64,000 bases of DNA from an uncultured Rhizobium sp. (GCA_964572805.1 CAZNGO010000043.1:47568-111567); one strand, 5' to 3'; positions 8,944-61,569 are shown, counted from the first letter of the stretch. The notes: generated by a model from the letters alone, not told the origin. Numbers and translations are program-made.

Positions 8944-8948
8944 CCGAT

Positions 8949-45517: not shown

Positions 45518-45541
45518 CGGTATTAGGTAGCGGATACAGAA
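45518..45541. repeat. left terminal inverted repeat of the transporter IS
   Basis: CGGTATTAGGTAGCGGATACAGAA. The reverse complement is present at 49797-49820. Confidence 0.9.
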
Positions 45542-45587
45542 GACCTTTTTCTTCTTCCTTCGGGGGTCCGGGGGTAATTTGCGCCCT

Positions 45588-46196: not shown

Positions 46197-46426
46197 TTAG
46201 GGCCAACGGGCAAAAAATATAGTCTTATATTTTCAATGGCTTATCGGCCTTTACGCCGCCGATGCCTAGATCTGCCGCTGGATTTTCTAGGATTTGCTCT
46301 GATTTTCGGCCAAGAGTTCCAAGGCCTGCTCGGCCAGCGCTTCGCCGTCGCTATAGCCGTTCTCTTCGCAGATGCGTTGTTTTGGCTTAAAGCCTTGGAA
46401 AACAACTAAGGATAGAATATTTCGCG

Positions 46427-47002
46427 ATGACAACCCTAACCTTGCAGCGCAACACCCTGTCTGCTAGTAGCGGCTCAACAGAATCGCTGCTTCGGGGATA
46501 TTGCTTGTCTGGAAGTAGGGGCGCGGCGCCGACAAGAGCGCGTAGGTTTTTCGCGGGGCTGAAGACATTCTCCGGGTTGAGTGCTGCGGCCGCGCTTTGG
46601 ATCGCGACGGCTGTTTTTGTCGCTTGCCCCGATAAGATCATGGACCTCAGCCAGCTCGCCCCCTCGTTTTTCGGGAGCGATGGCACTGACGTTCTGACCC
46701 ACGCGAATATTCTCGCGATCCTGGTGATCGCTGACATCTTCATCGCCACGATTGTTGTTGGCGACGAAGGAATGCGTCACGTGGTTTTCTCGCGAATCGG
46801 GTTTGGGATTTCCTTCGTTTGCATCGCAGCATTTCTGCTGGCTGACTTTTTTGGACTGCGCCAGCTTCGCCCGATGTTGGACCACAACGGGGCTCAATAT
46901 TTGCTCGCGGCGCTTGTTCTTATCTGCATTCCGCGTGGGCTGTCCTATTGGCGCCCTCAGGGAAAAGCGCAGCCAGTCCGTCATTCTGTCGGAGGGGGTT
47001 AA
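46427..47002 (+). CDS. polytopic membrane protein (IS passenger)
   Basis: About 4 hydrophobic helices. The stop lies 3 nt before the next ATG. The start is uncertain (46427, or an internal ATG near 46640). Confidence 0.45.
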   Translation: MTTLTLQRNTLSASSGSTESLLRGYCLSGSRGAAPTRARRFFAGLKTFSGLSAAAALWIATAVFVACPDKIMDLSQLAPSFFGSDGTDVLTHANILAILVIADIFIATIVVGDEGMRHVVFSRIGFGISFVCIAAFLLADFFGLRQLRPMLDHNGAQYLLAALVLICIPRGLSYWRPQGKAQPVRHSVGGG

Positions 47003-47005
47003 GCT

Positions 47006-47503
47006 ATGCTTTACGTGATAGCCGTCTCCATCGTGGTACTCGCGCTGATTTTCTTTACCTCGCCGAAGCGGTTCAATGTGAAAGCCTCCCGGCCTAGTGG
47101 CGTGCATCGCCATTCGGATCGCTGGTTTATGGCCGGACTTGCCCTGGACGCCAATGGAGCGCCCCTCAACACGGCGGGTAAGTTTATTGGACGCGTCGAT
47201 GGACAGTCGATGAACACCTACGGGATCCCCAGCGGTTCCACTGTCATTGCCAGCTATCTAAAAGATGCCGAGCGCAAACAGGTCAGTCACGGTGACATTC
47301 TCATTGTTGAGGATGCGCATCCGCATGGCAAAGCCTCTGAATATTGTCTCCGCAGGGTAGAGCGCGTCAAAAATGGCATGATTGAGTACTCGCCTGATAC
47401 TGGCGGGGATCATTGCCCACATGACGATGACAAAGCTGTAGCTATTGTTACGGCTTATGTTCCTCAAAAAAGGCTTCGCGGATTGTTCGAGGCTGCCGCC
47501 TAG
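47006..47503 (+). CDS. membrane-anchored S24 (LexA/signal-peptidase-like) domain protein (IS passenger)
   Basis: N-terminal TM MLYVIAVSIVVLALIFF. Then VDGQSMNTYGIPSGSTVIA...GDILIVED...RRVERVKNGMIEYSPD...AVAIVTAYV, which matches the S24 fold pattern. Confidence 0.6.
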   Translation: MLYVIAVSIVVLALIFFTSPKRFNVKASRPSGVHRHSDRWFMAGLALDANGAPLNTAGKFIGRVDGQSMNTYGIPSGSTVIASYLKDAERKQVSHGDILIVEDAHPHGKASEYCLRRVERVKNGMIEYSPDTGGDHCPHDDDKAVAIVTAYVPQKRLRGLFEAAA

Positions 47504-47609
47504 GCGCACGTGCAATTTCGCGAGTTGGCCCTCATTAGACCCTCTTCTGTGGTTTACTAATCTGTCGGCGGAAGACTGTGTTCGCCTCTGACACCCCGGC
47601 GCGAGCCCG

Positions 47610-48587
47610 TTACGCCACGCGCTCTGCCGGGGACCGGCGCTGCCAATACCCTTTCCACTGACGACTGACAGGATGCGTGGCCGCAGCCGTAACGATGGCG
47701 GCAAACTGCTCCCCATTGCTCACCCGGCGGCGATCCTCGCGCCAGTCCATTTCAGCGGCGTAGGATGCCAGATAGGGCCCGGCGATATGATGGTGCGTCC
47801 CGATTTCCGCGCGGCGCAGGCGGCTGAAAAAGCTTTCCGCCATATTGGTCGAGCAATCATCATCCTTGTAGCAGACTGAGTGATTGACGCGCTTGGTGTC
47901 GTACGAGGCATGGAAAGCGTCCCAGTGCGTAGCCTCATCGGCATAGACCGTGCTGCCAGGAGCAATCTTGCCATGCAGCGCCGGAACGGAGGCGGCTTCT
48001 GACTTGGCGGCGAAAGTGATGGTATTGCCGTTGCGCTCGCGCGCCACAATCACCGACTGGCGCTTGCCGGTTTGATTTTCAAGCAAGCGGCGGTCCTTGC
48101 GCGCCGCCTTATGATTTGCGGGCTTCACATAGCCGCCCACATACATGCCATCAATTTCAACATGGCCCGAGACTTTCTTTCCCGCATCTTCCGCCGCCAT
48201 CGCTTCCCGCAGCTTATGAGCCATCACGAAAGCGGTCTTGTATTGAACGTCCAGGTCACGGCTCAGTTGAAGCGCCGAAATGCCCTTTGCACCATTGGCG
48301 AAGATGGCGATGGCCGCGAGAATGTCCCGGATTGAAAGCTGGCGGCTTGAAAAGATCGTGCCGCTCGTGACCGAGAACTCCTTCTTGCAGCCTTTGCATT
48401 TCCAAACTTTGCGCGTCTGAAACCAATACAGGTCCACGCAGCCGCACTTGGGGCAGAAGGCCTCCCCGCCATTGGCAGCGAACCGAACCGCCTTGAAGGC
48501 GTCATAAGCCTCCTGGTCCGACATGCGCAGGACTTGGGCGAGGCTGACGGTCCGGGCGGCGCTGGAAAGGAGAAAGTGCTGGGCCAT
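47610..48587 (-). CDS. IS1595 family (ISXO2-like) transposase
   Basis: N-terminal zinc ribbon CPKCGC...CKGCKK. The DDE-type core has VEIDGMYVGG, VYADEATHW and NMAESFFSRLRR. Confidence 0.92.
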   Translation of the reverse strand: MAQHFLLSSAARTVSLAQVLRMSDQEAYDAFKAVRFAANGGEAFCPKCGCVDLYWFQTRKVWKCKGCKKEFSVTSGTIFSSRQLSIRDILAAIAIFANGAKGISALQLSRDLDVQYKTAFVMAHKLREAMAAEDAGKKVSGHVEIDGMYVGGYVKPANHKAARKDRRLLENQTGKRQSVIVARERNGNTITFAAKSEAASVPALHGKIAPGSTVYADEATHWDAFHASYDTKRVNHSVCYKDDDCSTNMAESFFSRLRRAEIGTHHHIAGPYLASYAAEMDWREDRRRVSNGEQFAAIVTAAATHPVSRQWKGYWQRRSPAERVA

Positions 48588-48690
48588 TTGTCATCGCATC
48601 CAGTGATATTACACACTGGATATAGCGATAGACCGCACCGGATGCAAGGGTTATTATCATCGGATATGATGATATTCATGGTCCGGACAG

Positions 48691-48945
48691 ATGCCGAAAA
48701 ACACCTATAAATCCAATGCCTTAACCCAGGAATATGAGGAAAAGGCCAAGAATCTGCTCAAGGGGGAATTGAAACGCAGGGGCGTGACCTATGCCCAGCT
48801 AGTCGAAAAGCTGGGGGCATTGGGTGTGCAAGAGACAGAACGCAACCTTGCCAATAAGATCAGCCGGGGCGGGTTTACGGGGGCGTTTCTAATCCAATGT
48901 CTCGACGCTATTGGCTGCCGCTCATTGCAGTTGTCGGACTCCTAG
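48691..48945 (+). CDS. DUF6471-like small HTH protein (IS passenger)
   Basis: KGELKRRGVTYAQLVEKLGALGVQETERNLANKISRGGFTGAFLIQCLDAIG. It is divergent from the transposase. Confidence 0.6.
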   Translation: MPKNTYKSNALTQEYEEKAKNLLKGELKRRGVTYAQLVEKLGALGVQETERNLANKISRGGFTGAFLIQCLDAIGCRSLQLSDS

Positions 48946-49742
48946 GGAGCGTACAGGCTCAGCCCGTACGTCAAAGCCCCAGCGGCCAAGCCGCCGCTCA
49001 GCAACGCAAGACCAAGCCAGCCGCCGACGCGCCACCAAGCATCCCTGTAACCGTCCAGAACGACATCCATGGCATCGCCAGCGCGCTGAAAACAGCGAAC
49101 GATAAGCAACCATCCAGCACAGACGAGCGCAATGCCAAGGCCCAGGAAGATGTAGCGTGGTGGACGCCCTGGCTGCTTTTGGTCGCCTTTCTGGAAATGC
49201 TCGTTACTGGCGCTGGCGTATGGCTGGTTTATCGCACTCTTTACCATACCAAGCGTGCAGCAGATGCCGCCCACGCAACAGTTCAATCCATGGAGTCTAC
49301 CTCCGCGCGGCAGTTGAGGGCTTACGTTCACGTTTGGAGATGCACCATGTCCATTTCTGAAGGTGCTGCCCACGTGAGGGTAAGGCTGGAAAACGCCGGC
49401 TCTACACCCGCTTATAAAGCCAGTGGATACGCAACAGTATGGGTGGATACTTTCCCCACCCCGCAGAACATTCCCACGACAAAACCCAAACTCGGAACTG
49501 ATATTGGGCCCGGAGGGAAAATGACTATGTGGAGACGAACTCCGATTTCGGATGCAGAAATGAAGCGGGTTACCGAAGGAACTCACGTAATATGGGTCAC
49601 TGGAATACTTGACTATCAAGATGCGTTCAAACAACCCAGACACGTAGACTTTCGTTACTTCCTTGCTGGCTATGAAGTCCCCAAGGCCATGACTGAAAAA
49701 GTCAGATTGAGCCTGTGCGAACAAGGCAACAATTCCGACTAG
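48897..49742 (+). CDS. membrane protein with signal-like N-terminus and one internal TM (IS passenger)
   Basis: MSRRYWLPLIAVVGLLGSVQA..., an internal helix WWTPWLLLVAFLEMLVTGAGVWLVY, and a beta-rich C-terminus. The antisense ORF 48942..49763 looks like a shadow. Confidence 0.5.
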   Translation: MSRRYWLPLIAVVGLLGSVQAQPVRQSPSGQAAAQQRKTKPAADAPPSIPVTVQNDIHGIASALKTANDKQPSSTDERNAKAQEDVAWWTPWLLLVAFLEMLVTGAGVWLVYRTLYHTKRAADAAHATVQSMESTSARQLRAYVHVWRCTMSISEGAAHVRVRLENAGSTPAYKASGYATVWVDTFPTPQNIPTTKPKLGTDIGPGGKMTMWRRTPISDAEMKRVTEGTHVIWVTGILDYQDAFKQPRHVDFRYFLAGYEVPKAMTEKVRLSLCEQGNNSD

Positions 49743-49796
49743 ACCCAGACTAGTTTTAAACACCGTTGCCTCCGGGGCAGCGGTATCAGGGGCGGT

Positions 49797-49820
49797 TTCT
49801 GTATCCGCTACCTAATACCG
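49797..49820. repeat. right terminal inverted repeat of the transporter IS
   Basis: TTCTGTATCCGCTACCTAATACCG is the exact reverse complement of 45518-45541. Confidence 0.9.
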
Positions 49821-50433
49821 GGGCATAGAAGCGCGTGACGTAGACGTGCAGGTGCATGTCGCCGAGGGCGGCAGCGGCCAGTTCACCATCGTCGGCCTGG
49901 CCGACAAGGCTGTCGCAGAAAGCCGCGAACGGGTGCGTTCGGCGCTGTCGGCCATCGGCCTGGCCATGCCGTTCCAGCGGGTGACGGTCAATCTCGCCCC
50001 CGCAGACCTGCCCAAGGAGGGCAGCCATTACGACCTGCCGATCGCGCTGGGGCTGCTGGCCGCGATGGGCGTGCTGCCCGCCAGCGAAATGGCGAATTAT
50101 GTCGCGCTGGGAGAATTGTCGCTGGATGCGGCGATCACCGCCGTGCCTGGCGTGCTGCCCGCCGCGCTGGCGGCCAGTGAACAGGGGCGCGGCCTGATCT
50201 GCCCGGAAGCCTGCGGGCCGGAAGCGGCCTTCGCCGGCGAGATTGAAATTCTCGCCGCCCCATCTCTGATCGGTCTGGTCAATCACATGAAAGGCGCGAC
50301 GGTGCTGGCCCCGCCTTCGCCAAAAGTGGCTTCGGCGGGCAGGCCCGCCCCTGACCTGCGCGACGTCAAGGGCCAGGAAAGCGCCAAGCGGGCGCTGGAA
50401 ATCACGGCGGCCGGCGGCCACAACCTGCTGATG
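49821..50433 (+). pseudogene. comM: comM/yifB middle fragment (N-terminal domain up to just before Walker A)
   Basis: GIEARDVDVQVHVAEGGSGQFTIVGLADKAVAESRERVRSAL...DLRDVKGQESAKRALEITAAGGHNLLM. ComM similarity ends at 50433. Confidence 0.9.
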
Positions 50434-50453
50434 TTGAGGTCTATATGCCCGGC
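50428..50453 (+). repeat. 26 bp direct repeat, copy 1 (comM/island junction)
   Basis: CTGATGTTGAGGTCTATATGCCCGGC is identical to 57757-57782. Confidence 0.9.
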
Positions 50454-50471
50454 GATAGCCGATGGTCCGAG

Positions 50472-50987
50472 CTACCTTTTCGCTTGCAAGTCGAAGACTG
50501 CTCCCAACTCTCCCTCAGATGAGCGAAATAACCGGTTCTTGCGAAATCCAAACACGCCAGAGCGGATCAAATACAATGCCCATTCCTTCGGCGCGACTAC
50601 CGCGAATACCATCGGATAACTCCCCTTTCGCGCCAGATTAAACCAACTGCCCGTATCAATAACTGATGGTTTGGGGCTGCCGTATGGATGGGTATGCCAC
50701 TCCCCGATAAATGTCGTGGTTTCACCAGACCTCCGCCAAGCCTTTGTGGCTGTCGATTGATGAATGGGGTCCTTTCTGACAAACGAGTATTGGCGGCGTT
50801 CGTCGCTCGGCCCCGAACGCGTGAAGTCAGTTACCTCAAGATGGGGACCGCGATAGCGCCCAAGCAGAATCCCACCATCCTCGACGAGGCCACGACATTT
50901 ATCGGCGGCTTCGTCCAGGAAGGCGATAACGGGGTAGTGAACCAAAACATGCGGATGCTTAAGCAGCACAGACCCGGCATCCAGCAA
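50472..50987 (-). CDS. cap3: CBASS Cap3 (JAB/MPN isopeptidase)
   Basis: JAMM motif GEWHTHPYGSPKPSVID. It lies immediately downstream of the E1/E2 gene. Confidence 0.85.
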   Translation of the reverse strand: MLDAGSVLLKHPHVLVHYPVIAFLDEAADKCRGLVEDGGILLGRYRGPHLEVTDFTRSGPSDERRQYSFVRKDPIHQSTATKAWRRSGETTTFIGEWHTHPYGSPKPSVIDTGSWFNLARKGSYPMVFAVVAPKEWALYLIRSGVFGFRKNRLFRSSEGELGAVFDLQAKR

Positions 50988-52617
50988 GCTTGGTGAGGTT
51001 CTGGTCTTTAGTCTGAAACGTTGCTGTTTCGTTGATCCTTATGGTCCGAAGACGCGGCGATGGAGTTCCTGCCACCCAATCAAGGGCCATTTGCACGCCC
51101 ATTCCCGATGCGATCCCGGATGGGCCTGGCCCATAAGCGAAATACGCACCCTCGCCGCAATTCGCGGGGACTAAGGCCGCTGGATGTTCTGGCTGCAAGA
51201 CACGAAATCGTTCTTTTCCATCAGCCTGAGTCAGGCAATCAAGGCAGCCGAAGGCGGGGTCGTCAACAAGAAGCGCGCGCGCTGCAACTCCGTTGCCTTC
51301 AAGCCAAACATGAAGATGGGCGGGCGCGACCTTTCCGGCCCTTCTTAGGCCGACAAGATGAGCGTTGATTGCACGAGAAACCGGTTGATCGCCGGTCGCA
51401 TCGACGACTAGATCATATCGCGCCAACTCATCGAGGTGTCGCAGCGCATCGTCATTAGTGGGTTGAGCGTTAATGCCTGGGTACGTGGCCTTCAGAAGCG
51501 CGCAGCATTCTGACGCCTTTGAAAGTCCGATTGACCGAAGGCCAAGAACGTGCCGCCCGACATTTCCCGGACTAAATAATTGTTGGTCCATCAAAGACAG
51601 ATAGCCGCCGCCAAAGCCAGCCCCAGCTTGCGCGAACAATTTCGCCAATTGCCCGCCAATGGTCCCGAGGCCCACTAGGACGATGCGCTTCTTATCCAAG
51701 CCGGGCTTTCCTCCGAGGTTCCGTTCAATAACGAACCGTTCGTCCGCCCGCTCTCCCGTCAACCTCGTAATGGGGATTTTATCTGCGAAGTGTTGAATCA
51801 GATATCGCCCAAAACCCTTAGTCTGTTGCGCCTTCACCAACCCCGGAGGAGGCTTTGCTATCGCGCCGACCGTGCCATTCTGGGCGGCCAAAATTACACA
51901 CATCGACGACAACCGCCGCTCTGCAAGACCATTAGTAATCTTTGTGTCCAAATCGAACTCAACTGATGCAGCCCATTTCAGCAGTTCATCCAACGTACTT
52001 GGCTGCACAAACGGACGCTTAAACGTAAGTGGGTTTTTCACCCTTATCACCCAGGCTCGTGGTGCGTTTCTCCAGACCTGGGCCTTCTGTGTCGCCGTCA
52101 TGCCGAAGCGATTGAGCGAATCCTCTCCTTTGCCTATCACCGATAACAGGTCCTGTTCGCGCTCTACCTGCAACAGCCTTGCCTCTCCGGATTTCGGCCA
52201 CTCCTCAGCAATGTAGAACCGGTCTCCGCGCCAGTGCTGCGGAAATTCAATTGCAATCTCCTCGCTCAGATCTTGGGTCAACATGCGCGCGAGCGCTTCA
52301 GTCATAGCGTTTACGCATCGAGTAACTGAAACGTCTGGCCGAAATGGGTCGAGTTGCATCTCGATATCTTGGGCGTAGCAAACGCGGTCGTCGTCTTCTA
52401 TGTGGGCGACTATCTCGGAAAACTGCTTCGCTCTATCGACGAGAAAGAGCCTGGGGATGCGCGTAAGCGTTGCATCCGTAAACAGTACCTCGACCTCCAC
52501 CGACGTATTATTCGGCCTTAGTACGCCTTTGAATTTTAAACCACGAGTTTGAGTGCGATCACGCTCGAAACCAAGCACGACCATGGTCTCGTGTATCACC
52601 CGCGCATTATCATCCAT
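50959..52617 (-). CDS. cap2: CBASS Cap2 (E2-like plus E1/ThiF-like fusion)
   Basis: N-terminal E2-like region with DDDRVCYAQ. The C-terminal ThiF/E1 Rossmann region has VLVGLGTIGGQLAKLFAQAGAG and a CLDC cysteine cluster. Its start shares one base with the CD-NTase stop (TGATG). Confidence 0.87.
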   Translation of the reverse strand: MDDNARVIHETMVVLGFERDRTQTRGLKFKGVLRPNNTSVEVEVLFTDATLTRIPRLFLVDRAKQFSEIVAHIEDDDRVCYAQDIEMQLDPFRPDVSVTRCVNAMTEALARMLTQDLSEEIAIEFPQHWRGDRFYIAEEWPKSGEARLLQVEREQDLLSVIGKGEDSLNRFGMTATQKAQVWRNAPRAWVIRVKNPLTFKRPFVQPSTLDELLKWAASVEFDLDTKITNGLAERRLSSMCVILAAQNGTVGAIAKPPPGLVKAQQTKGFGRYLIQHFADKIPITRLTGERADERFVIERNLGGKPGLDKKRIVLVGLGTIGGQLAKLFAQAGAGFGGGYLSLMDQQLFSPGNVGRHVLGLRSIGLSKASECCALLKATYPGINAQPTNDDALRHLDELARYDLVVDATGDQPVSRAINAHLVGLRRAGKVAPAHLHVWLEGNGVAARALLVDDPAFGCLDCLTQADGKERFRVLQPEHPAALVPANCGEGAYFAYGPGPSGIASGMGVQMALDWVAGTPSPRLRTIRINETATFQTKDQNLTKLAGCRVCAA

Positions 52618-53843
52618 CAGCCAGAACGAGTTCGGATAACGATGGGTGCCGATACTCTCGTGGCCTCGTATTGCCGGATCAGGCGCTCCGCCGTGACGGG
52701 GACAATCAATTCGGCGTCGTCCGGTATCCGCGAACCGAGAACCTCAACAAATCGAGCCAGAGAGAATTCTGTGTTCGATGTGCTTTGTATCGCGTCTGAC
52801 ACGCTCCTGTGAAGTGCCTTTGCCGCCTCGACATATTCCGCGCGTTGGGCTGCTGTCCATTCGCCATTCAAGACTTTCTGAAGGACAGGATTTGCTATGC
52901 CCCTTGGGTCAGCGAAAAAATCCGGAAGCTTTGAAGCCACTAGCAGGAGCGCCGCGTCGTCCCGTGCGCTATCGAAATTGCCCTGTAAGGAATCGAAAAC
53001 GTCCACGGCGCATTTCATCAAGGTGATCGAACTGACACGCGATGTCGTCTGCCAGCGGAAATCCCTCCACGCCTTAATATAGCGGCAAATGCGCACCAAC
53101 TGCTCGCCATGGGTTTTGACTGCCTCCACAAACCAATCTTCGATGGCCCGAGGATCAGATTCAGTCCAGCCTTCCGAGCGCTGCGCCAGCATGATCGTGT
53201 CGGTATCGAGATCGCGGTAAACTCGATCCGCGAACTCGTCGAAGGCCAGCAGCGCCGTATCATGGGCGAACAAGGAATCTGCCCGAGCGGCTTTTTCGAG
53301 TAACGTTGCGTATTCCTTATCGGGGATCGCGTAGAGCGCGATGTCGAGGTGAGAACGCGCATCAAGCTCGATCCGGACGCAGCAATCCTTCTGAATCATC
53401 TTCCAGTTTTGGGCCCTGCACAGCGGTTCAAGCGCCTTCTCCACTAGGAGGAAGTAGCCCTGGCTTGTGATGGCTGGTGACTGGCTGTTGCCTTGGACAA
53501 AGAACGAGACTGGCAGAAACATGCCATCATCGAAGTCGATCTGCTGACCGGTCCAGGCGGGTACATTCAGCGTTCGATATGCGTAGCTACCTTGCCTTCG
53601 AAATTTGGGGCTAAGGTTGGGGACAGGCATTCCAGCGCGAGCATAGGCGCGCTCAATCACCGTCTTGTCGTCGGCAAGCTGGTGCCAGTTCTTGAAGGCT
53701 AGGGTTATCGCGGTGCGCGCCTTGTCTCGGGCATTCCGGAGGCGGTTCAGCCTGTCTTCTGGCACTTCCAAAGATTCGAGAAAGGGCCGGTCGGCGCGCT
53801 GGCCGGAAAACAGAGAATGGGCATTCAAAATCGTCTGAATCAT
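52617..53843 (-). CDS. CD-NTase (cGAS/DncV-like nucleotidyltransferase)
   Basis: RRQGSYAYRTLN (G-S motif), QQIDFDDGMFLP (DxD) and SHLDIALYAIP (third Asp). Length 408 aa, with a C-terminal ...RTRSG. Confidence 0.9.
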   Translation of the reverse strand: MIQTILNAHSLFSGQRADRPFLESLEVPEDRLNRLRNARDKARTAITLAFKNWHQLADDKTVIERAYARAGMPVPNLSPKFRRQGSYAYRTLNVPAWTGQQIDFDDGMFLPVSFFVQGNSQSPAITSQGYFLLVEKALEPLCRAQNWKMIQKDCCVRIELDARSHLDIALYAIPDKEYATLLEKAARADSLFAHDTALLAFDEFADRVYRDLDTDTIMLAQRSEGWTESDPRAIEDWFVEAVKTHGEQLVRICRYIKAWRDFRWQTTSRVSSITLMKCAVDVFDSLQGNFDSARDDAALLLVASKLPDFFADPRGIANPVLQKVLNGEWTAAQRAEYVEAAKALHRSVSDAIQSTSNTEFSLARFVEVLGSRIPDDAELIVPVTAERLIRQYEATRVSAPIVIRTRSG

Positions 53844-53917
53844 AATATCCTACCTTGGGCTTCCAGCCCCTTCTTGACGACCTCCCTCACCCCCAAAGGG
53901 TCACGCCAAACGTTATC

Positions 53918-54604
53918 ATGTTCCAACTCCTAGATTTTAGAAAATGCTTGGAGTGGTTCGCGCCCCTCGTGGCCGCGACGGCAATCATTATATGGGCGAT
54001 TCGGATGCCGAGGGAACTGCTAGATATCGTGGAGACGATCAGCCTTGCGGGGCTCGTCTCGGTCACGATTGTATTCCTAGTTGGTGAGACACCGCTTTTC
54101 CACGTGTTGTGGAAAATCCCCTTTGTTCAGAAGCACTTGTTTCCATTCATCCCTGGAATTTATGACGGGACGATATCGTCAAATTGGAAAGTGATTGAAG
54201 CACTTCGAACGGGTGCGACCGGTATTGGTGGCCTTGTAGACGCCAGTTTGCATGTGGATCGAGTGGGAAATTTCGATAAGCCCGTAACGGTCGAAATAAA
54301 GGCTTCTCTGTTCCGGGTGAGCATGAAACTCACACCCAAGGATGCTTACACCGACTCGCAGACCGTCTGGCTGCGTCCAATCGCCGAAGGTGAAGCAGGA
54401 CATCCACGGCTGTTCTACATGTATAGATCAATCACTCAGGGCGCGCCCAAAGCGACGGATGTTCCTACTCATTTTGGCGCGGCTTATGTGGATGTGATCG
54501 CAGATGGCAACAAGATCACGCTCAGGGGCGTCTACTGGACAGAGCGGGACTGGCCGCGTGGGAACAACACAGCCGGTGCGATCAGTGTCGCAAAGGTATT
54601 TTGA
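53918..54604 (+). CDS. two-TM, beta-strand-rich CBASS effector candidate (Cap15 / S-2TMbeta-like)
   Basis: The ATG at 53918 gives MFQLLDFRKCLEWFAPLVAATAIIIWAI...ISLAGLVSVTIVFLVG (2 TM), followed by a roughly 150 aa beta-rich domain ending GVYWTERDWPRGNNTAGAISVAKVF. It is divergent from the CD-NTase. Confidence 0.68.
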   Translation: MFQLLDFRKCLEWFAPLVAATAIIIWAIRMPRELLDIVETISLAGLVSVTIVFLVGETPLFHVLWKIPFVQKHLFPFIPGIYDGTISSNWKVIEALRTGATGIGGLVDASLHVDRVGNFDKPVTVEIKASLFRVSMKLTPKDAYTDSQTVWLRPIAEGEAGHPRLFYMYRSITQGAPKATDVPTHFGAAYVDVIADGNKITLRGVYWTERDWPRGNNTAGAISVAKVF

Positions 54605-54745
54605 CTAGAGCCATCGCCCAAGTGGTAGCGCTAGGCAAACTACCTCGGAGTCTCGCGACTGACCGGAGTATGTGCTTGGCGCATTGCCTGTTTTTATTCA
54701 AGGAATGTGTGCCGGACTGCGCCCAGCAAAGGCCACGTTCTCCAC

Positions 54746-55018
54746 TTACCCGCCATGCCCCGCCCGATACTGCTGGATCATCGCCGGGGTCACATCCGCG
54801 TCGTAGCAGATGGGCGAGCGGCCTCCTGGACGGCTGTATGCGCTCCTCCGCCCACACGAACGGCCCGCTCGATCCCTGTTGTAGGGACAGGGGCAATTGC
54901 CGGGATACGAGGCGAGTGACTCTCGGATGACGGCCTGCCGGACCTGGGCGTCCGTCATCCGCTGGGCGGCGGCGGGCATGGCGATGGTGAGCAACGCAAC
55001 AGCGAGCAACGCTCTCAT
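54746..55018 (-). CDS. small secreted Cys-rich protein
   Basis: Signal peptide MRALLAVALLTIAMPAAAQ, then GNCPCPYNRDRAGRSCGRRSAYSRPGGRSPICY. Length 90 aa. Confidence 0.6.
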   Translation of the reverse strand: MRALLAVALLTIAMPAAAQRMTDAQVRQAVIRESLASYPGNCPCPYNRDRAGRSCGRRSAYSRPGGRSPICYDADVTPAMIQQYRAGHGG

Positions 55019-55056
55019 GGCATCCCCCTATTGTTTTGGCCGGTATAGCACAATTT

Positions 55057-55075
55057 GCCGGGCTATATGCCCGGC
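55057..55075. repeat. perfect palindrome containing a third copy of the island-end 13-mer
   Basis: GCCGGGC-TATAT-GCCCGGC. Positions 55063-55075 (CTATATGCCCGGC) equal the 3' half of the 26 bp repeat. Confidence 0.85.
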
Positions 55076-55099
55076 GCTATGCCCGGACCCTATCTAGGC

Positions 55100-55132
55100 G
55101 CGAATGACCGCTTCTGACCCAAAGCGGACATT
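55100..55132. repeat. REP-like hairpin repeat, copy A
   Basis: GCGAATGACCGCTTCTGACCCAAAGCGGACATT. It matches 57692-57724 at 29 of 33 positions and contains the CCGCTT/AAGCGG stem. Confidence 0.75.
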
Positions 55133-55387
55133 CAGACGGGGACCTTGATTTGCTCCGTATGCACTTTCGGATGGGCTGTTTTACTGACTGAGTTGATTGA
55201 TCGAGGCGGGCGACGGACCCACTGTGGTCCCTGATCGGGCCATACAGCCTGAAAAACTGCCCACGTCATCCTCACGTGGTGGACGAATAGCCCAGTTCGG
55301 TACAAGATGCGTATGGGGTGATCGCCGAGGGATTTACCGAGCAGGCGTACCAACTTTTTGGACATCACATTTGGCGGGGCAACCATT

Positions 55388-56074
55388 ATGTGGAAGTCGA
55401 TTATCATTCCGGCTTTAATTCTGGCGACATTTGCTAGCCCAGTAAAGGGGCAATCAATACAGGGCTTTAATCCGCGGTGCACAGACGCAGCGGGCACTCC
55501 GGTGCGATTTATTTTCGTGCCACAATTGTCGGACATAGGAATCTCTACGGTGCTGAATGGGGCTCCGGTTATCGAGCTTCATTCAAATCTCCTCTCGTTT
55601 CCCCCCCTTTTGCAGATGTTCTTCTATGTCCATGAATGCGAACACCACATACATGGCGACGTTCTAAACGGCCTTTTGGGTGTGGTTGATTTTAGCCGGG
55701 AAAGCAAGGCTGACAGAGATGCGATACGTGCTCTGAGAGACGTTTATGGGATATCATCCGCACAAGCTGCGCTTATCTCAAGCCTCTTTCTAAGCGTGCC
55801 TGAAATGCGTCCATTTTATGCTGCGGGACCCATTCGTGCCAAATGGATCCGAGATTGCTTCGCTACGTCCGACGAATTCTGTGGCTCATCGACGGCGTTT
55901 AAAGGATTGCGGGGCTCTTCCGGTGAAAGGGATGGCGAAGGAAGACCGTGCGATAGTGCTGAAGCTCTCATTATGCAGTCCTGTAGGAGCCAGCAAGAAA
56001 TCGATGCCGAGAAACAGCGTTCGTATTGCAACAGCGCAGCGGCCATGATTATGGGCGACTGCAAAAAGGATTAG
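55388..56074 (+). CDS. secreted protein with HExxH motif (putative metallopeptidase)
   Basis: The ATG at 55388 gives MWKSIIIPALILATFASPVKGQ (signal). FFYVHECEHHIHGD contains HECEH. The C-terminus is Cys-rich. Confidence 0.5.
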   Translation: MWKSIIIPALILATFASPVKGQSIQGFNPRCTDAAGTPVRFIFVPQLSDIGISTVLNGAPVIELHSNLLSFPPLLQMFFYVHECEHHIHGDVLNGLLGVVDFSRESKADRDAIRALRDVYGISSAQAALISSLFLSVPEMRPFYAAGPIRAKWIRDCFATSDEFCGSSTAFKGLRGSSGERDGEGRPCDSAEALIMQSCRSQQEIDAEKQRSYCNSAAAMIMGDCKKD

Positions 56075-56108
56075 ACCGCTTCTTCATTCGCGTGTTTGGA
56101 GGCGTTCA

Positions 56109-57638
56109 ATGTCGCGGCTTGCTTTAACTTTCTGTGTAGCGATTGCTTGCGGCTCCGCCGTTCTGGGTAGTGGCCTGATTTGGCGGCCTGCATCTGCTCA
56201 GCAAGGATTTGATTACGCCAAAGAGGCGACGCCCGGCGCCGAAATCCCGGACATCCATGCGTGCAAGGTAGAAAAGCTTAGCCACGCAATGTTGGCGTTG
56301 CCTGGAATCAAGTGCGATGTAACAAGCGACTTGGGCATCATAACAAAAGAGGCAGATCAGCAGTCACAGTATTTCTGTTCCGCTGACGGGCGGATTTACC
56401 GCGCATCCGATCTCGGCGCTCATGCTTACGAGACTAGGTGTACGATGTCCTTGGGTGACATGCGTGTACGCTTTCTATACGCGAATGCTCTTCAATGCGG
56501 CGTAGCTGAGGGTTTATCGCAAACCGCTCTCAGTGGACTATTAGCAGGCGGTCCATTTGTAACGGAGCGCGTTCATTGCCCATCAGGCTTACATCCGGAC
56601 GCCCGCACGGAGGCCGGAAAGGCAACAATAATGCGGCAATGCTTCCAGCAAACGCTGGAGGGTGTGCGAAAGGAATCGGGCGATCTGACTCTTCGTCCGT
56701 GTGCACCAAACTCTCGTTGGAATGGCTTCAATTCTGAAATTACTCGTGAGCTGGGACTCGACCAATCTTTAAATGATGAATTCGCGCACCCGGTAAGCGC
56801 TGGGCCAACATTGCAGGATTGTCCAGAATTATGCCCAAAGATGGCCCTTATTCCAGCGGGCTCTTTTTTAATGGGTGTAAACGATGGCCATAGGGTAACC
56901 ATCGCCAAACCATTCGCGATGGCAAAGTATGATGTTACGCGCGCAGATTATGCTCGCTTTGTTGCTGAGACGAATTGGAAGTCTGAAGACCATTGCTGGA
57001 AAGGCGATGACCATACAGGCCCTTCCGGCATTAGCGAGGACGCCAATTGGCGCTCCCCCGGCATAACCCAATCTGATTTGGACCCGGTAGTGTGTGTCAG
57101 TTTCGCAGATGTCCAAGCTTACATTGAATGGCTCAATCGAAAGACACACCAGACCTATCGTTTGCCGTCTGAGGCGGAATGGGAATACGCCACCAGAGCG
57201 GGGAGCATAACGACATATTGGTGGGGCCAAGACATCAATCGGGGGTGCGAGTTTGACAACTTATTCGATACCGGCTCGTTGAACCAACATGTGAGTGACC
57301 GAGAAATCAGTTTTGCGATTTCTCACCTTTACGTGGCTGCAAATTGTTCTGATGGCTATTTGACGTTCTCACCCGTTGGCGCATTTAAGCCCAATCCTTT
57401 CGGCCTCTACGATATGGTTGGAGACGCAAGGCAATATATGGCTGATTGCTGGCATGTAAGCGTTGTGGATGCACCGAGCAACGGCAGCCCGTGGATAGCT
57501 CCTTCCTGTAGGTATCATGTGATTCGCGGCGCAGGTTGGTATGAAAGTGCCTGGCAAATGTCTCAGTCTGGATATCGTAGCACCTGGGGTGGGCAGGCGC
57601 ACTTTGACTTAGGGTTTAGGCTCGCCAAGTCTCTTTGA
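56109..57638 (+). CDS. secreted FGE-sulfatase (SUMF1/EgtB/PvdO-type) domain protein
   Basis: The C-terminal half has LIPAGSFLMG...YRLPSEAEWEYATRAG...PNPFGLYDMVGD...VIRGAGW...GFRLAK. The N-terminal roughly 240 aa are unassigned and carry a signal peptide. Confidence 0.85.
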   Translation: MSRLALTFCVAIACGSAVLGSGLIWRPASAQQGFDYAKEATPGAEIPDIHACKVEKLSHAMLALPGIKCDVTSDLGIITKEADQQSQYFCSADGRIYRASDLGAHAYETRCTMSLGDMRVRFLYANALQCGVAEGLSQTALSGLLAGGPFVTERVHCPSGLHPDARTEAGKATIMRQCFQQTLEGVRKESGDLTLRPCAPNSRWNGFNSEITRELGLDQSLNDEFAHPVSAGPTLQDCPELCPKMALIPAGSFLMGVNDGHRVTIAKPFAMAKYDVTRADYARFVAETNWKSEDHCWKGDDHTGPSGISEDANWRSPGITQSDLDPVVCVSFADVQAYIEWLNRKTHQTYRLPSEAEWEYATRAGSITTYWWGQDINRGCEFDNLFDTGSLNQHVSDREISFAISHLYVAANCSDGYLTFSPVGAFKPNPFGLYDMVGDARQYMADCWHVSVVDAPSNGSPWIAPSCRYHVIRGAGWYESAWQMSQSGYRSTWGGQAHFDLGFRLAKSL

Positions 57639-57691
57639 CATTGTGGCTGATTGCACCCTGGCCAATGTCCTGATGATCTTACCACCCCTCG

Positions 57692-57724
57692 GCGAACGAC
57701 CGCTTTTGGCGCAAAGCGGACATT
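57692..57724. repeat. REP-like hairpin repeat, copy B
   Basis: GCGAACGACCGCTTTTGGCGCAAAGCGGACATT. The stem is CCGCTTT/AAAGCGG. Confidence 0.75.
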
Positions 57725-57756
57725 GCGAATGTCACGAAATTGGTAGGCTCACCTTC

Positions 57757-57782
57757 CTGATGTTGAGGTCTATATGCCCGGC
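57757..57782 (+). repeat. 26 bp direct repeat, copy 2 (boundary between island modules)
   Basis: CTGATGTTGAGGTCTATATGCCCGGC is identical to 50428-50453. Confidence 0.9.
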
Positions 57783-57797
57783 TGCAAACGGAATGGT

Positions 57798-58106
57798 CTA
57801 ATTGAGCGGAACATTGTGCTCGGCCATACACTGCCGGAATACATATTTGGCCTGCTGGTCAACGTTCATAAAGCCGTTGTCTTCGACCTTGCCCGTTGCC
57901 GCGTTGTAGTAGGCGTCAAAATGCTTGTAGGAGTCACCGTATGCTGGGTTTGGGTCTGGCATGTTGCGGACGTACAGAACACAGTCAGCAATCACCTTCT
58001 TTATCACCGCGCTTATGGCAGGTTTTTTTGGGGAACTTGCCTGTTGACCGAATGTGGGCAGAGTTGCCGTAGCCATTAGGAATACCGCAGCCACTAGCCT
58101 TTTCAT
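57798..58106 (-). CDS. small secreted protein, unknown function
   Basis: The ATG at 58106 gives MKRLVAAVFLMATATLPTFGQQ (signal). It has two Cys residues. There is a 1-nt gap to the stop of the upstream ORF. Confidence 0.5.
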   Translation of the reverse strand: MKRLVAAVFLMATATLPTFGQQASSPKKPAISAVIKKVIADCVLYVRNMPDPNPAYGDSYKHFDAYYNAATGKVEDNGFMNVDQQAKYVFRQCMAEHNVPLN

Positions 58107-58107
58107 T

Positions 58108-58431
58108 TTATAACCCCTTCCAGCCCTCAACGGCGGCGACAACGCTAGCCACGGCGGCAACCAGTGAAAGCGCCAGCAGGACGCTATAGCCGATCCTGTC
58201 CATCAAGATACGCCAGCGGATGACCGCTACCAGTTCCACCCGGCTTATCAGACCGTCGCTGAGGCGAAGTAGATCGTCACTGGTGCCTTGGTAGATGCGG
58301 CGTAGGTCGTCGGTGGTGTAAAGTTTCAAATCGGCGGCGTTGCGGCCTGAGATTTTCCGCAAGACGCAAATTACATCCCACCATGTCATCAAGTGGACGG
58401 TCTGCTTCGGGCCGGGGATTGCCATAGGCAC
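58108..58431 (-). CDS. tail-anchored small membrane protein, unknown function
   Basis: Soluble N-terminal roughly 70 aa, then a C-terminal TM YSVLLALSLVAAVASVVAAV. The start is 58431 or 58389. Confidence 0.42.
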   Translation of the reverse strand: MPMAIPGPKQTVHLMTWWDVICVLRKISGRNAADLKLYTTDDLRRIYQGTSDDLLRLSDGLISRVELVAVIRWRILMDRIGYSVLLALSLVAAVASVVAAVEGWKGL

Positions 58432-58594
58432 AGCATACCCGATTTTCAGTCAGCGCTAGACCTGTCGGGCAGCCGGTTGCCGGAAAAGCACGATGGGGCC
58501 GCCAAGGGGCCCCCGGCACGTCGCCAATTTTTCTAGGTGAACTCGCCTATCGGCTCGCCAAGCCTTCGGCTTGGGCTGGCGCTCGGCCTATGCC

Positions 58595-59308
58595 TCAGGC
58601 GGCAGGACGCTCCAGCCCAAGCCGGTCCCGCAGCCGCCGGACTGACGTTTCATGCCAGCGACCGCCCTCGCGGCGCGTTTCGATTCCGTTGTCGTTAAGC
58701 TGCTTCGCAATGGCCTTGTCACTTAGACCTTGGGCGACGTAGGGAGCGATAAAGTCTTTCATTCCATTTGCGAACTTGTCCGCCGCCTGTTCCGCGCCCT
58801 CAACTGCCGCCACATTGCCATACAGGGCGACATGCGCGACCAATGGGGCCGCTCCGCCGGGCCCGCCTAGCTTGATGCCACGCGCAACAGCAGCCGCCAG
58901 CGCCGCCTTGGTTCGGGCTGAGATTGCCCTAGCCTCCTCCTCAGCCACCACGGCCATAATGCCAAGCTGTAGGGTGCTGGCGTGGGGCGTATCGGCAAAG
59001 ACCACCTTGACCTTGGAGTCGTCCAACAACGTCAGAACCTCGCTGGCGCGCCTGCCGATGCGGTCCAGCTTCGCCACTACAAGCGTTGACCGGGTAGCCT
59101 TTGCCAAGGCTATGGCCCTTTTGAGCGCCGGGCGGGCCTTTAGGCCGGACTTTACCTCCCTGAAGCTTTCGACAACGCGGGCATTGTGGAAGGCCACGTA
59201 GTCAGCCAGCAGCTTGTCCTGAGCCGCCATGCCGAGCCCGTTCATGCCCTGTGTCCGGGCCGTGCTGACGCGGGTGTAAGTCACCACCTTTTTGACCGTT
59301 TGCAGCAT
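58595..59308 (-). CDS. small serine recombinase (resolvase/invertase family)
   Basis: The ATG at 59308 gives MLQTVKKVVTYTRVSTARTQ (catalytic Ser context). LVVAKLDRIGRR is present. The C-terminus has LNDNGIETRREGGRWHETSVRRL. Confidence 0.9.
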   Translation of the reverse strand: MLQTVKKVVTYTRVSTARTQGMNGLGMAAQDKLLADYVAFHNARVVESFREVKSGLKARPALKRAIALAKATRSTLVVAKLDRIGRRASEVLTLLDDSKVKVVFADTPHASTLQLGIMAVVAEEEARAISARTKAALAAAVARGIKLGGPGGAAPLVAHVALYGNVAAVEGAEQAADKFANGMKDFIAPYVAQGLSDKAIAKQLNDNGIETRREGGRWHETSVRRLRDRLGLERPAA

Positions 59309-59310
59309 AA

Positions 59311-59346
59311 ACACAATCTCCCTAACGCCCGTTCGGGAGATTGTGT
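59311..59346 (-). promoter_or_regulatory. 12 bp perfect inverted repeat over the recombinase ribosome-binding site
   Basis: ACACAATCTCCC, a 12 nt spacer, then GGGAGATTGTGT. On the mRNA the 3' arm contains the GGGAG Shine-Dalgarno sequence 9 nt from the ATG. Confidence 0.6.
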
Positions 59347-59687
59347 GGCATGGCATTGTGAGGGAGTCAAACGGGGTCCGGGGGCGATTTGGCCGGTCTG
59401 GCTGGCTTGACTGCATCGGTTGAGCGCAGCCGCCCGCGTGGCAGGGCGCGAGGATCGCGCCGGAGGCGCGGGCCGAGTTAGCAGGGCAGACAGGACCGCC
59501 GGAGCCGCCCTTAGCTGCCCCCGCAAAAGCCAAAATAAATAGGATTATTCTCCGTGTACGGACTTTCTACAGGCGGTGACGGGCAGGAAAGCTGATTATT
59601 TGGCCGATGAATCTGCTGGGTACGTGTTTACACCGGATACTTTGGTACCAACCCATCTTGGGGCGAGAAATGCCAGCGGAGGGGCAC

Positions 59688-59727
59688 AAAAAAGCCCCTT
59701 CGCAGCAGAGCAGTGCTGCGAAGGGGC
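59688..59727 (-). terminator. strong rho-independent terminator (minus strand)
   Basis: On the minus strand: GCCCCTTCGCAGCA-CTGCTC-TGCTGCGAAGGGGC followed by TTTTTT. The stem is a perfect 14 bp. Confidence 0.78.
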
Positions 59728-59998
59728 CGAGCGGTTGAGCGTCAAGGGGATGCGGCGGTGTTGCAAGTCGCGGCATAGCTGCCGACGCGGACCGTTGGAC
59801 ATAGTATCTCGCGCATCGCGGGACAGGTCAACGAATCCATGTACGCGCTTCGCGCGCTTGCCCGCCTGCGGCGGCAAGTCTGCGATCATCACATCGGAAA
59901 AGGCGAACAGCCCGCGCGGTGTGAAGGCGCGCGGGCCGCTCGGATCGTCCGGAGAGGGGCAGACGATGTTCCGGTAAATCCGGGGGCGCTTGGTATTA

Positions 59999-60121
59999 TT
60001 GTCCCCTGTCCCCCCAGAATTCAAAGATTTGAAATCTACTTGAAAACGATACGTAACGCCCTCCGTACGTATGGCGGGGGGTACGCGCCCCCCCGTTCCG
60101 TTGGGGGGACACGGGGGACAA
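59999..60121. repeat. structured G/C-tract inverted repeats around an AT-rich core (candidate ori or recombination site)
   Basis: TTGTCCCCTGTCCCCCC (59999-60015) pairs with GGGGGGACACGGGGGACAA (60103-60121). Between them lie AGATTTGAAATCT, two TACGTA boxes and GGGGGGTACGCGCCCCCCC. Confidence 0.4.
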
Positions 60122-60123
60122 CA

Positions 60124-61569
60124 TCATTCCGGGCTGCGTTCGTAACCCCGCTTCGGATTCTTTTCTCCATCTACGCGAGGCTTCACGCGCCGCCAGCCGA
60201 GGCGCCTCAGAATACCGCCAATCCTTTTCGCATCGGTTTCCCTCATTTGCAGCTTTTCCAGCCCAATGGCGTCTTTAAGAATTTCGGCAGAGGTCACAAA
60301 CAACAAACCCGGGTTTGCCGCCAAATAGGCTGCGACCAAATCTTCCCACGGTTCCTCGACCGTCCGCGAAGCTTGGATTGCGCGGGCAACCTCCCAGAGG
60401 TTTTCCGGCAAAACTGTGGAGTAGCCGTCGCGATACATCGCCAACGCCTCCGCCCACAATTGCAAACGGTCCCGTTCAAACTCTGTCGGCTTCAAATCTG
60501 TTGTTTCCACCGGCAGGTACCGGCGATTGCCTGTTTTGTCCTGCAAGTAGATCGACTCATTGGTAGTGGCGATAAAGATTCCCCTGCGAGGAAAATCCTT
60601 AACTGCACGACCATAGGGCAGGCGAATGCGATCTGTCTGCCGCGAGTTAAACGCCTTCATCGCGTTCAAATCGGCCCGCGAGGCAACATCTAGTTCCGCC
60701 CATTCAATGATGTTCTTTCCCTGAATCTTTTGAATCGTGTCCTTGCTGCGCACGTCTCCAATATCCGGGTCAGCGTAAAATTCTCCGCCAAGGGTCCGCA
60801 ACATAGCGGACTTGCCCTTGCCCTGAATCTCGCCTTCTAAAACGAGCATAGTGTCAAACTTGCAGCCCGGCTCATATTCGCGCTTGATTGCGCCTACAAG
60901 CGTGATTGACCCAGCGGCGCTAACATACGCGCGTTGCTTCTGTTTCCATTCGCGCTCCTCCTTGGAGTCGCTGTCCTCGTCCTCAGGCGATACAGCGCCA
61001 AAATACACCGCTAAAAAAGTCGGAACCCGCTTAATGCCGTCATGCTTGGGAAGGGATTCGAGAAACTCCCTAAATGGCGCGACCGGATTTTGCTGACAGA
61101 GTGTTTCGACAGCTTCCCAGACATGCTGCTTCGTAAACTCGGCATCGGTATTGAAATGCAAGAAATCGCGGATTTCGATGGCAAGCTTGTCATCCATCGT
61201 TTCGCCGAAATGTGACTTAGACCACGGAACGGAGTGGCCACGAAAGAGATAGTCGCCCGTTGTAATGTCATAGGCGAAACCCCAATCCTGCTTTTCGAGT
61301 AGCAAAAGTGCGTTTGTGTAAGTTGGCCGAATTGAACCATCATCCTCGATACTGACCGAGGGCGGAATAACGAAACCAAGCGTGGTCCGCTTCGCCATTG
61401 CCTTTTGCTTCTTTGATAGCTTTTTTGCGCTTCGCTTTGCTCGATCAATTTCATTGCGGCGTTCGCGCTTCGCTTCGGCCGCTTCCTCAGGTGTAAGGCT
61501 AACCGGAACATCCTCAAAAATGTTCTCGGTTTGATTAGTGTCAGTAATTGCTTTGGTCATTTTCTTCAC
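60124..61569 (-). CDS. VirE-family (virulence-associated protein E) helicase/NTPase
   Basis: Walker A LEGEIQGKGKSAMLRTLG, FIATTNE, RRYLPV. It lies next to a PrimPol gene. Confidence 0.87.
   Translation of the reverse strand: MKKMTKAITDTNQTENIFEDVPVSLTPEEAAEAKRERRNEIDRAKRSAKKLSKKQKAMAKRTTLGFVIPPSVSIEDDGSIRPTYTNALLLLEKQDWGFAYDITTGDYLFRGHSVPWSKSHFGETMDDKLAIEIRDFLHFNTDAEFTKQHVWEAVETLCQQNPVAPFREFLESLPKHDGIKRVPTFLAVYFGAVSPEDEDSDSKEEREWKQKQRAYVSAAGSITLVGAIKREYEPGCKFDTMLVLEGEIQGKGKSAMLRTLGGEFYADPDIGDVRSKDTIQKIQGKNIIEWAELDVASRADLNAMKAFNSRQTDRIRLPYGRAVKDFPRRGIFIATTNESIYLQDKTGNRRYLPVETTDLKPTEFERDRLQLWAEALAMYRDGYSTVLPENLWEVARAIQASRTVEEPWEDLVAAYLAANPGLLFVTSAEILKDAIGLEKLQMRETDAKRIGGILRRLGWRRVKPRVDGEKNPKRGYERSPE

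Follow-up and report, generated by a model that had tools for sequence, protein, structure and literature searches.

How does a short sequence at the broken end of a gene come to be repeated 7.3 kb away, and what does the repeat reveal about the DNA around it? The gene is comM, within a 64,000-nt stretch of DNA (the window) from an uncultured Rhizobium sp. (GCA_964572805.1 CAZNGO010000043.1:47568-111567). An original prediction, made from the sequence alone, held that two related modules are stacked here at one attachment site. Coordinates refer to the whole window, and “virtual” coordinates above 64000 to its extension by L001, a Logan contig of 8708 bp retrieved by exact look-up of a window protein. 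An exact search finds the 26-mer CTGATGTTGAGGTCTATATGCCCGGC exactly twice in the window, at 50428-50453 and 57757-57782, both on the + strand as predicted. The two copies are identical at 26/26 positions (with mismatches allowed the repeat, D5, reaches 33 nt at 91%); no match occurred in 100 shuffles, and the window has no other match at ≤3 mismatches. Pfam and translation agree with the prediction that the CTGATG of copy 1 represents the last comM codons, the L-M of GGHNLLM, the segment ending in AAGGHNLLM. The junctions described below show a composite island, apparently built by site-specific stacking at the comM attachment site of a large serine recombinase (LSR).

The right end of the insert lies outside the window. 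Over 6305 nt L001 matches window 57696-64000 at 100% identity, and it runs 2.4 kb past the window. There the outer flank of the right junction, CTGATGATCGGCCCGCCGGGCGCCGGCA, encodes LMIGPPGAG, the Walker A region of comM. This right end sets the end of the island at virtual ~66376, the whole insert at ~15.9 kb and its last element, E2, at 8.6 kb (57783-64000 and on to ~66375 beyond the window, - strand). As had been claimed, the sequence past copy 2 is not comM; E2 genes identified with Pfam lie there, and since comM resumes only at virtual ~66376 the two copies are not the ends of a single insertion. At the far end of E2 a 558-aa LSR is encoded at virtual 64654-66330 (L001:74-1750), followed by the P arm and then the comM 3′ part. 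The gene lies ~650 bp past 64000 and its start codon is 45 nt from the junction. Its product contains the Resolvase (PF00239), Recombinase (PF07508) and Zn_ribbon_recom (PF13408) domains and matches a PHROG integrase at 4e-81. This predicted LSR, just outside the window, is almost certainly the integrase responsible.

The attachment sites can be reconstructed from the two outer junctions, attL1 and attR. The left part of attL1 joined to the right part of attR restores an uninterrupted comM, ...HNLLMIGPPGAG. The reciprocal join, of attR-left and attL-right, gives an attP of ~50 bp, TCCGGGTATAAAGACTACAACA TG-CT-GA TGTTGAGGTCTATATGCCCGGC, in which the 22-nt arms are inverted-symmetric at 17/22 positions around TG-CT-GA, an imperfect palindrome. 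A palindromic site of ~50 bp is the usual form of an LSR attP. In a related locus of a Rhodospirillales metagenome-assembled genome (MAG), L021, the core common to attL and attR is CT alone, at the same comM codon. The palindrome centre and this CT-only core together place the crossover at window 50428-50429, and the 26-mer is then the CT crossover plus a complete P′ half-site. The 24-bp P′ half-site would be the predicted binding half for one LSR subunit. Site attL1 (50406-50453, +) consists of the comM B arm (..GGCGGCCACAACCTG), CT at 50428-50429 and the P′ half-site. Copy 2 (57757-57782, +) is CT with the P′ half-site of E2 and, together with an arm X to its left, forms a hybrid junction X-CT-P′. 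Thus the view that each copy is the left end of a separate but related element stands for copy 1 and has to be amended for copy 2.

The two copies are identical from the crossover to the outer edge of the half-site, and no further on either side. Neither the upstream pair nor the downstream pair of flanks is more similar than shuffled controls, so that the “weak residual similarity” once noted 3′ of both copies is lost. The coincidence of the 26-mer boundaries with a functional site, with flanks that behave like shuffled sequence, speaks against a random duplication. The original prediction had also proposed to look beyond 64000 for comM and another copy of the repeat, and to count its absence against stacking. 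The comM 3′ part is found there, preceded by the P arm and without a further copy; attL1 and attR have only TGCTGATG in common and no long direct repeat. Such a direct-repeat test presupposes tyrosine-type sites. With a serine integrase, the end sequence expected before comM 3′ is an inverted partner of the repeat, which the P arm is (at the 17/22 positions given above), and stacking is therefore not refuted. The P arm is common almost base for base to the closest relatives (L003, L012 and L100), and ~45 more distant loci have the same junction architecture.

Between the two copies a third, partial copy is located at 55056-55079 (+), where 55060-55079 matches copy 1 at 18/20 positions. It keeps the outer 17-20 nt of P′ and has lost the crossover-proximal part; the window contains three exact occurrences of the 13-mer CTATATGCCCGGC. 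The P′ sites thus lie at 50434, 55056 (decayed) and 57763, all +, with attR beyond the window. A reading of the third copy as a decayed attP (P-P′) was rejected as not significant. A second repeat is a 33-nt hairpin at 55100-55132 (D6a) and 57692-57724 (D6b), with 88% identity. The third copy and the hairpin that follows are homologous to P′+hairpin units in the array of a related locus, L104, and on this ground what was taken for one first module is probably two cassettes, M1 and M2, with a decayed junction between them. In terms of predicted half-sites, the layout shown by the sequence is comM5′-[B-CT-P′] M1 [decayed P′] M2 [X-CT-P′] E2 [P-CT-B′]-comM3′.

Nucleotide identity of 72-85% to the window's chromosomal genes on the upstream side of comM marks five loci as orthologous. 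Among named relatives the nearest are Rhizomicrobium MAGs, and the clade is alphaproteobacterial. Empty, element-only, array-only and array-plus-element states exist at this one orthologous site, in keeping with the expectation that related comM loci would hold a single kind of module (L003, L106, L104) or none (L105). L105 has an empty, intact site, GGCGGCCACAATCTG-CT-GATGATCGGGCCGCC, with the uninterrupted reading ...CACAATCTGCTGATGATCGGGCCGCC.... L003-L005 carry an E2-like element alone, with an LSR 73% identical, PrimPol and VapE, the P′ arm lying directly on comM 5′. An LSR-type element alone is also found in L106, where 4.5 kb of cargo separates the P′ arm from a small resolvase and there is no internal copy. 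L104 is without an LSR and has four P′ sites in the same orientation (10649, 11177, 11706 and 12796) that delimit cassettes of 0.5-1.4 kb. L103 is likewise an array, with P′ sites at 10586, 11404, 12797 and 15550 and the same X-CT-P′ junction. A tblastn search with the LSR and the small recombinase of E2 found no homologue in the L103 or L104 arrays. The locus therefore joins the marks of an LSR element (an LSR at the insert end, a clean target split with an empty site in a relative, and a palindromic attP) to those of composite accretion (at least three attachment copies in one orientation, a recombinase-less module, and modules that occur singly in relatives).

The arm X supplies the link between arrays and element. 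A hairpin+X unit lies directly left of copy 2 in the window and likewise left of the 11404 site of L103, and is 85% identical to the window over 74 nt in L103 and 84% over 64 nt in L104. The array of L104 ends ...ACATTGCGAATGTCACGAAATCGGGTAGGCCCGCCGTC|TTGATG|ATCGGGCCGCCGGGC: hairpin and X are joined at the crossover position straight to comM 3′. An excision of E2 alone from the window would be predicted to leave this terminal junction almost base for base. In all seven examples the part of X adjoining the crossover (15 nt) agrees with the comM B arm at 7-10/15 positions and with the P arm at only 3-6/15. The supported inference is that X is a B-type half-site mimic; resembling the comM B half-site, it would allow X-CT-B′ to serve as a surrogate attB. 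Between arrays the junction units and hairpins are conserved and the neighbouring cassette genes are without similarity. An exact 20-mer search of JGI metagenomes gave one match, L092, 1.1 kb from the contig end, and a search of IMG/VR gave none. In L092 a hairpin-X-P′ unit, with the 26-mer matching at 24/26, is fused to a decayed comM 3′ remnant.

The wider LSR family uses one and the same comM codon. The comM halves adjoin the LSR in >50 of the 80 loci fetched with this family, which span Alpha-, Gamma- and Deltaproteobacteria, Planctomycetes, Verrucomicrobia, Gemmatimonadetes and cyanobacteria. In every case the cut directly follows the GGHNLL(M) codons, just 5′ of Walker A, and element size is 5-11 kb where both junctions are visible. 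Across ~45 loci, repetition affects P′ sites on the comM-5′ side only and never the P arms, a pattern to be expected from growth at a target regenerated beside comM 3′. Internal P′-type repeats are absent from the ~38 screened loci with the exception of L044, L021, L087, L103 and L104. In L044 (Akkermansiaceae MAG, LSR ~40% identical), a 2.67-kb LSR-less module at 7216-9920 lies between comM 5′ and the LSR element. It has four ORFs (open reading frames) without family matches and is bounded by the near-identical half-sites TCAAGTTGTGACCCAATTGACC and TCAAGTTGTAGCCCAATTGACC. L044 is an independent instance of the stacked architecture.

Probably, then, the locus is a composite island in which E2 joined a pre-existing LSR-less array at a surrogate attB, X-CT-B′. 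The prediction that two related modules are stacked at one comM attachment site is supported by the site anatomy and the orthologous loci. In the proposed course of events, an LSR-less M1+M2 array ending in X-CT-B′ would precede the arrival of E2. E2, presumably an 8.6-kb self-replicating integrative element, would enter X-CT-B′ by attP x attB-type recombination, creating X-CT-P′ (copy 2) and P-CT-B′ (attR). With a directionality factor, the LSR could then recombine attL1 with attR, excise the 15.9-kb composite with its cassettes in cis and restore comM site 1. Alternatively, X-CT-P′ x attR would excise E2 alone and leave an L104-like array with a re-usable target. Mobilisation of the first module in cis, within the 15.9-kb composite by attL1 x attR, would be more likely than the strictly trans mobilisation envisaged earlier.

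Several points weigh against this account. The likeness of X to the B arm is only modest (8/15 for the window's copy, against 4.2 +/- 1.8 under the null), which makes X-CT-B′ no more than a putative attB for the LSR. A longer flank of copy 2 does align with the comM 5′ end in a multiple alignment. Its reading as a decayed comM 5′ end was rejected: shuffling gives z = 2.2, and 19% of random genomic 60-mers do as well. As the 60-mer control is not significant, only the short B-arm resemblance is claimed for X. LSRs of the canonical kind need a directionality factor to act on hybrid sites, and no candidate for such a factor was recognised among the small ORFs. The model does not account for the origin of X ends on LSR-less cassettes. 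Only three arrays of this P′/X family, plus the remnant in L092, were found, and no cassette is common to two arrays, which leaves cassette-level mobility a conjecture. In the Logan assembly L001 passes copy 2 unbroken, with no hint of a sizeable population in the sample from which E2 alone had been excised.

A more far-reaching idea is that comM in the Rhizomicrobium-like clade hosts an LSR-driven, integron-like array. LSR-less cassettes, with defence systems such as CBASS among them, would each be bounded by attL mimics (X-CT-P′), and the terminal X-CT-B′ would be a re-usable target. Replicative LSR elements would dock there, leave and dock again, dropping or gaining cassettes, and the junction unit would move between genomes. 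This is a tentative and rather doubtful extension. The island departs from an integron array, with its IntI tyrosine integrase, attI and attC hairpin sites, in that its sites are LSR half-sites and no tyrosine integrase is present in the island; the D6a/D6b hairpins do flank cassettes.

The order of arrival could in principle be reversed. E2 would be resident first, with a B-CT-P′ attL, and M would enter later as an X-CT-P′ circle, by recombination with that attL, the LSR acting in trans. Arrangement and junction sequences would be identical, and the conserved junction units with their differing cassettes would fit circles that each carry one X-CT-P′ site. LSRs do not normally carry out the attL x attL-type recombination that this order requires. 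The array of L104 exists without an LSR element and ends X-B′, which means that the array-first order needs the canonical reaction only, and repeats confined to the 5′ side fit growth at the 3′ side. Arrival of E2 before the cassettes is accordingly unlikely.

Another alternative accepts the stacking and treats the array as a fossil, with dead internal sites and a fixed island in which attL1 x attR works at most, or nothing does. Decay is evident in the third copy and in the LSR-less comM remnants of L108 and L092, and 120/120 listed closest homologues of the ComM N-terminal half (77-91% identity, 199-338 aa) are truncated, suggesting long-term occupation. Copies 1 and 2 are still identical at all 26 positions, and the LSR, PrimPol, helicase and repressor ORFs of E2 are intact. 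A further point against fixation comes from L001 and L002, which both end exactly at the 30-mer where attR and an intact attB become identical. The contig ends of L003-type relatives are less regular. The ends of L001 and L002 may be an assembly-graph branch caused by an uninterrupted site 1 in the same samples, in some cells or another strain, an indication given little weight. A dead array is, on balance, quite improbable.

A duplication without a recombinase, in which slippage or illegitimate recombination copied the P′ end of one element and cargo was inserted later, finds a parallel in the short tandem attL-like units of distant relatives (47 bp in L021, ~41 bp in L087) and is very improbable, the identity running from the inferred crossover dinucleotide to the half-site edge and the arm left of copy 2 being conserved and, in L104, joined to comM 3′ at the same nucleotide.

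Array-first stacking, to return to the preferred account, recalls several known systems. Stacking is an established way of island growth; the comM locus is new and has an unusual, probably re-usable target site. In the SCCmec, ACME and COMER islands at orfX (rlmH) of staphylococci, with CcrAB LSRs, modules are stacked at one LSR site, within a conserved gene or at its end, and delimited by short direct repeats of attachment sequence, and ACME is a recombinase-less module relying on the ccrAB of its neighbour (PMC7029739). The comM island differs from these staphylococcal cassette chromosome (SCC) elements in its target, its recombinase lineage and its single far-end LSR plus small serine recombinase in place of a ccrA/ccrB pair. 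The comM repeat is one half-site with the crossover, and the internal junctions have a conserved X arm. Excision has been demonstrated for SCC, whereas the comM island is known from sequence alone. The ssrA islands of Dehalococcoides are tandem, lie downstream of one LSR target and have direct repeats of ~20 bp (McMurdie et al. 2011, PMC3146451). Their integration module is a ~540-aa LSR with a ~200-aa small serine recombinase, and islands without it have been proposed to be cis-mobilisable by accretion (PMC3146451). There the target is the 3′ end of the tmRNA (transfer-messenger RNA) gene, the repeat reconstitutes the gene end, and the two recombinases are neighbours in one operon, in contrast to E2, where they occupy opposite ends. 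Accretion is likewise described for the cis-mobilisable elements (CIME) and integrative and conjugative elements (ICE) of streptococci (cited in PMC3146451). Tycheposons, whose integration and excision remodel genomic islands at fixed sites, and elements like the phage-inducible chromosomal islands (PICI) have a gene set similar to that of E2 (bioRxiv 10.1101/2020.12.28.424599). Tycheposons use mostly tyrosine recombinases and tRNA targets, and E2 has no recognisable packaging genes.

LSR elements that target comM, the same gene as in this island, are known from passages of Durrant et al. 2022 (PMC10083194), which report that 12.4% of predicted site-specific LSRs have Mg-chelatase/comM homologues as their target. 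The loci compared above agree with this and share one conserved insertion point. Those passages do not mention stacked arrays, LSR-less cassettes or a surrogate attB at comM. Literature on comM with serine recombinase and island likewise gave no description of stacking there. No earlier account seems to exist of cassette arrays at comM that have a conserved surrogate target arm. The reconstruction specifies natural attB, attP, attL, attR and hybrid X sites for a comM-targeting LSR, in a target class that, by the same passages, takes in about 1 in 8 predicted site-specific LSRs. If X-CT-B′ really works as a surrogate attB, a strictly directional recombinase could still build multi-cassette islands, which would explain the presence of defence systems such as CBASS (cyclic oligonucleotide-based antiphage signalling system) in modules that lack an integrase and yet hitch-hike. 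For annotation, short exact repeats beside comM can be recognised as LSR half-sites, and the integrase may be many kb off.

The cargo of the array (50454-57756) was identified from Pfam, PADLOC and translation. M1 carries at 50472-54604 a complete type II CBASS, with all four genes matched in PADLOC and Pfam: Cap3 JAB (50472-50987, -, 1.5e-32), Cap2 E1/E2 (50959-52617, -, 2.8e-121), the CD-NTase (52617-53843, -, PADLOC cyclase 1.6e-119) and a 2TM (Cap15-like) effector (53855-54604, +, 2.3e-49). The last M1 gene, at 54746-55018 (-), is a 90-aa ORF with a signal-peptide-like N-terminus and no Pfam match. The decayed P′ half-site at 55056 marks the M1/M2 boundary, and hairpin D6a (+) the left end of M2. 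The M2 cargo, 55132-57638, comprises a 134-aa ORF (55132-55536, -) and two proteins with signal-peptide-like N-termini, one of 228 aa (55388-56074, +) and one of 509 aa (56109-57638, +) that ends in an FGE-sulfatase domain according to Pfam. For the last, the best 120 matches include no homologue above ~40% identity. The right end of the array (57692-57756, +) is hairpin D6b followed by the X arm at 57727-57756, GAATGTCACGAAATTGGTAGGCTCACCTTC. No recombinase domain was found by Pfam in the main ORFs of 50454-57756, so the first part of the stack is recombinase-less as predicted; the role given earlier to a small serine recombinase of the second module, inside the window, is not likely, the LSR lying outside.

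Hairpins of the form CCGCTT-N-AAGCGG occur in the window only at the ends of M2 (55106-55127 and 57698-57719). Several sites are present in L092 (~four per 7 kb), and in L104 they lie at 11746, 12650 and 12837, before or after P′ sites. Hairpins near-identical to D6a come after the L104 P′ sites, at 11746 and 12837. The hairpin may be a cassette-insulating terminator or belong to the recombination unit; it may also be a repetitive extragenic palindromic (REP) element that comes from a former host.

E2 carries, beside its integrase, genes for replication and regulation, all on the - strand where assigned. To the right of copy 2, two small ORFs precede the small serine recombinase (~237 aa, 58595-59308, -, Pfam). 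A VapE-like helicase (60124-61560, -) and PrimPol (61541-62518, -), both identified with Pfam/PHROGs, are followed by small ORFs and a helix-turn-helix (HTH) repressor (63445-63771, -). Beyond the window the gene calls of L001 add a 148-aa and a 64-aa ORF (-). A PHROGs search of E2 recognised no terS, capsid or interference gene, and six small ORFs were without match; with no packaging or capsid-hijack gene found, E2 is no more than a candidate satellite. Relatives of the LSR in IMG/VR are distant only (≤42% identity over most of the protein, with one 70-residue match at 55%).

The small serine recombinase at 58595-59308 is not likely to be the integrase. It was also considered as a frameshifted LSR, an idea rejected on three-frame translation, which gives a complete ~230-aa protein and no continuation. 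In E2-type elements the LSR and the small recombinase are widely separated, the latter being close to the P′ end. Serine recombinases of ~230-250 aa occur at window 58595-59308, L100 10394-11092 and L106 15245-15997, and in L003 a 206-aa tyrosine recombinase (16941-17561) occupies the same position. The small recombinase may serve multimer resolution of a replicating circle. The pairing of DsiA and DsiB in Dehalococcoides is a possible parallel.

The comM gene itself is interrupted twice in this genome, by the LSR island and by a transposon at codon ~14. Its true 5′ start, MAVAHIHTVAFQGI... (45476-45517, +), matches the N-termini of ComM homologues. An IS1595-family transposon with passenger genes (45518-49820, 4.3 kb) follows, with perfect 24-bp terminal inverted repeats (100% complementary), CGGTATTAGGTAGCGGATACAGAA, and an 8-bp target duplication, GGGCATAG, at 45510-45517 and 49821-49828. 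It contains an ISXO2-like transposase (47610-48587, -, DDE_Tnp_IS1595 and Zn_ribbon in Pfam) and, alongside other ORFs, a DUF6471 protein (48691-48945, Pfam). The middle segment of comM (49821-50433, +; ChlI to GGHNLLM, by translation and Pfam ChlI and Mg_chelatase) ends at the LSR insertion site, immediately 5′ of the Walker A codons. It has 82% nt identity to the comM of L105. The L105 alignment covers window 45430-45515 and resumes at 49818, skipping the transposon. Of an intact comM from the same species no example emerged among the 120 homologues listed, and L105, with 91% aa identity, is the best comparator. The truncated ComM homologues have read-through tails in few classes (L[RGW]S[IR][CY]P..., VLGSNVP...), and intact comM seems rare in this clade, among the 120 homologues listed.

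Some arrangements at other loci extend this picture of comM. In L104 the complete comM 5′ half is preceded by an extra comM-5′-end fragment with a P′-like arm (9182-9267). The fragment has 80% identity to window 50374-50460 and suggests that attL-type units can also duplicate leftward of comM. Three tandem attL-like units follow the comM 5′ junction in L021 (reverse strand, ~3850-4010) and in L087, an Oleispira MAG (9620-9760); each unit holds a P′-type arm, with no cargo between units, and slippage or repeated recombination may have produced them. A 134-aa comM fragment lies between two different LSR genes in L102 (8062-11710) and in L010. The second LSR element lies ~130 codons downstream of the first site, and comM therefore has more than one LSR attachment site.

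In this clade comM is hit repeatedly by mobile elements of at least two unrelated kinds. The IS1595-type element of the window (end GGTATTAGG..., read-through tail VLGS[KN][LV]P) is found elsewhere in the comM of L104 (~14270-16150), L105 (~10100-10370), L003 (3170-9880) and L092 (reverse strand, ~1200 onward). The insertion points in the comM of these relatives are after LDELPEF or after LDAREAL(EIS).

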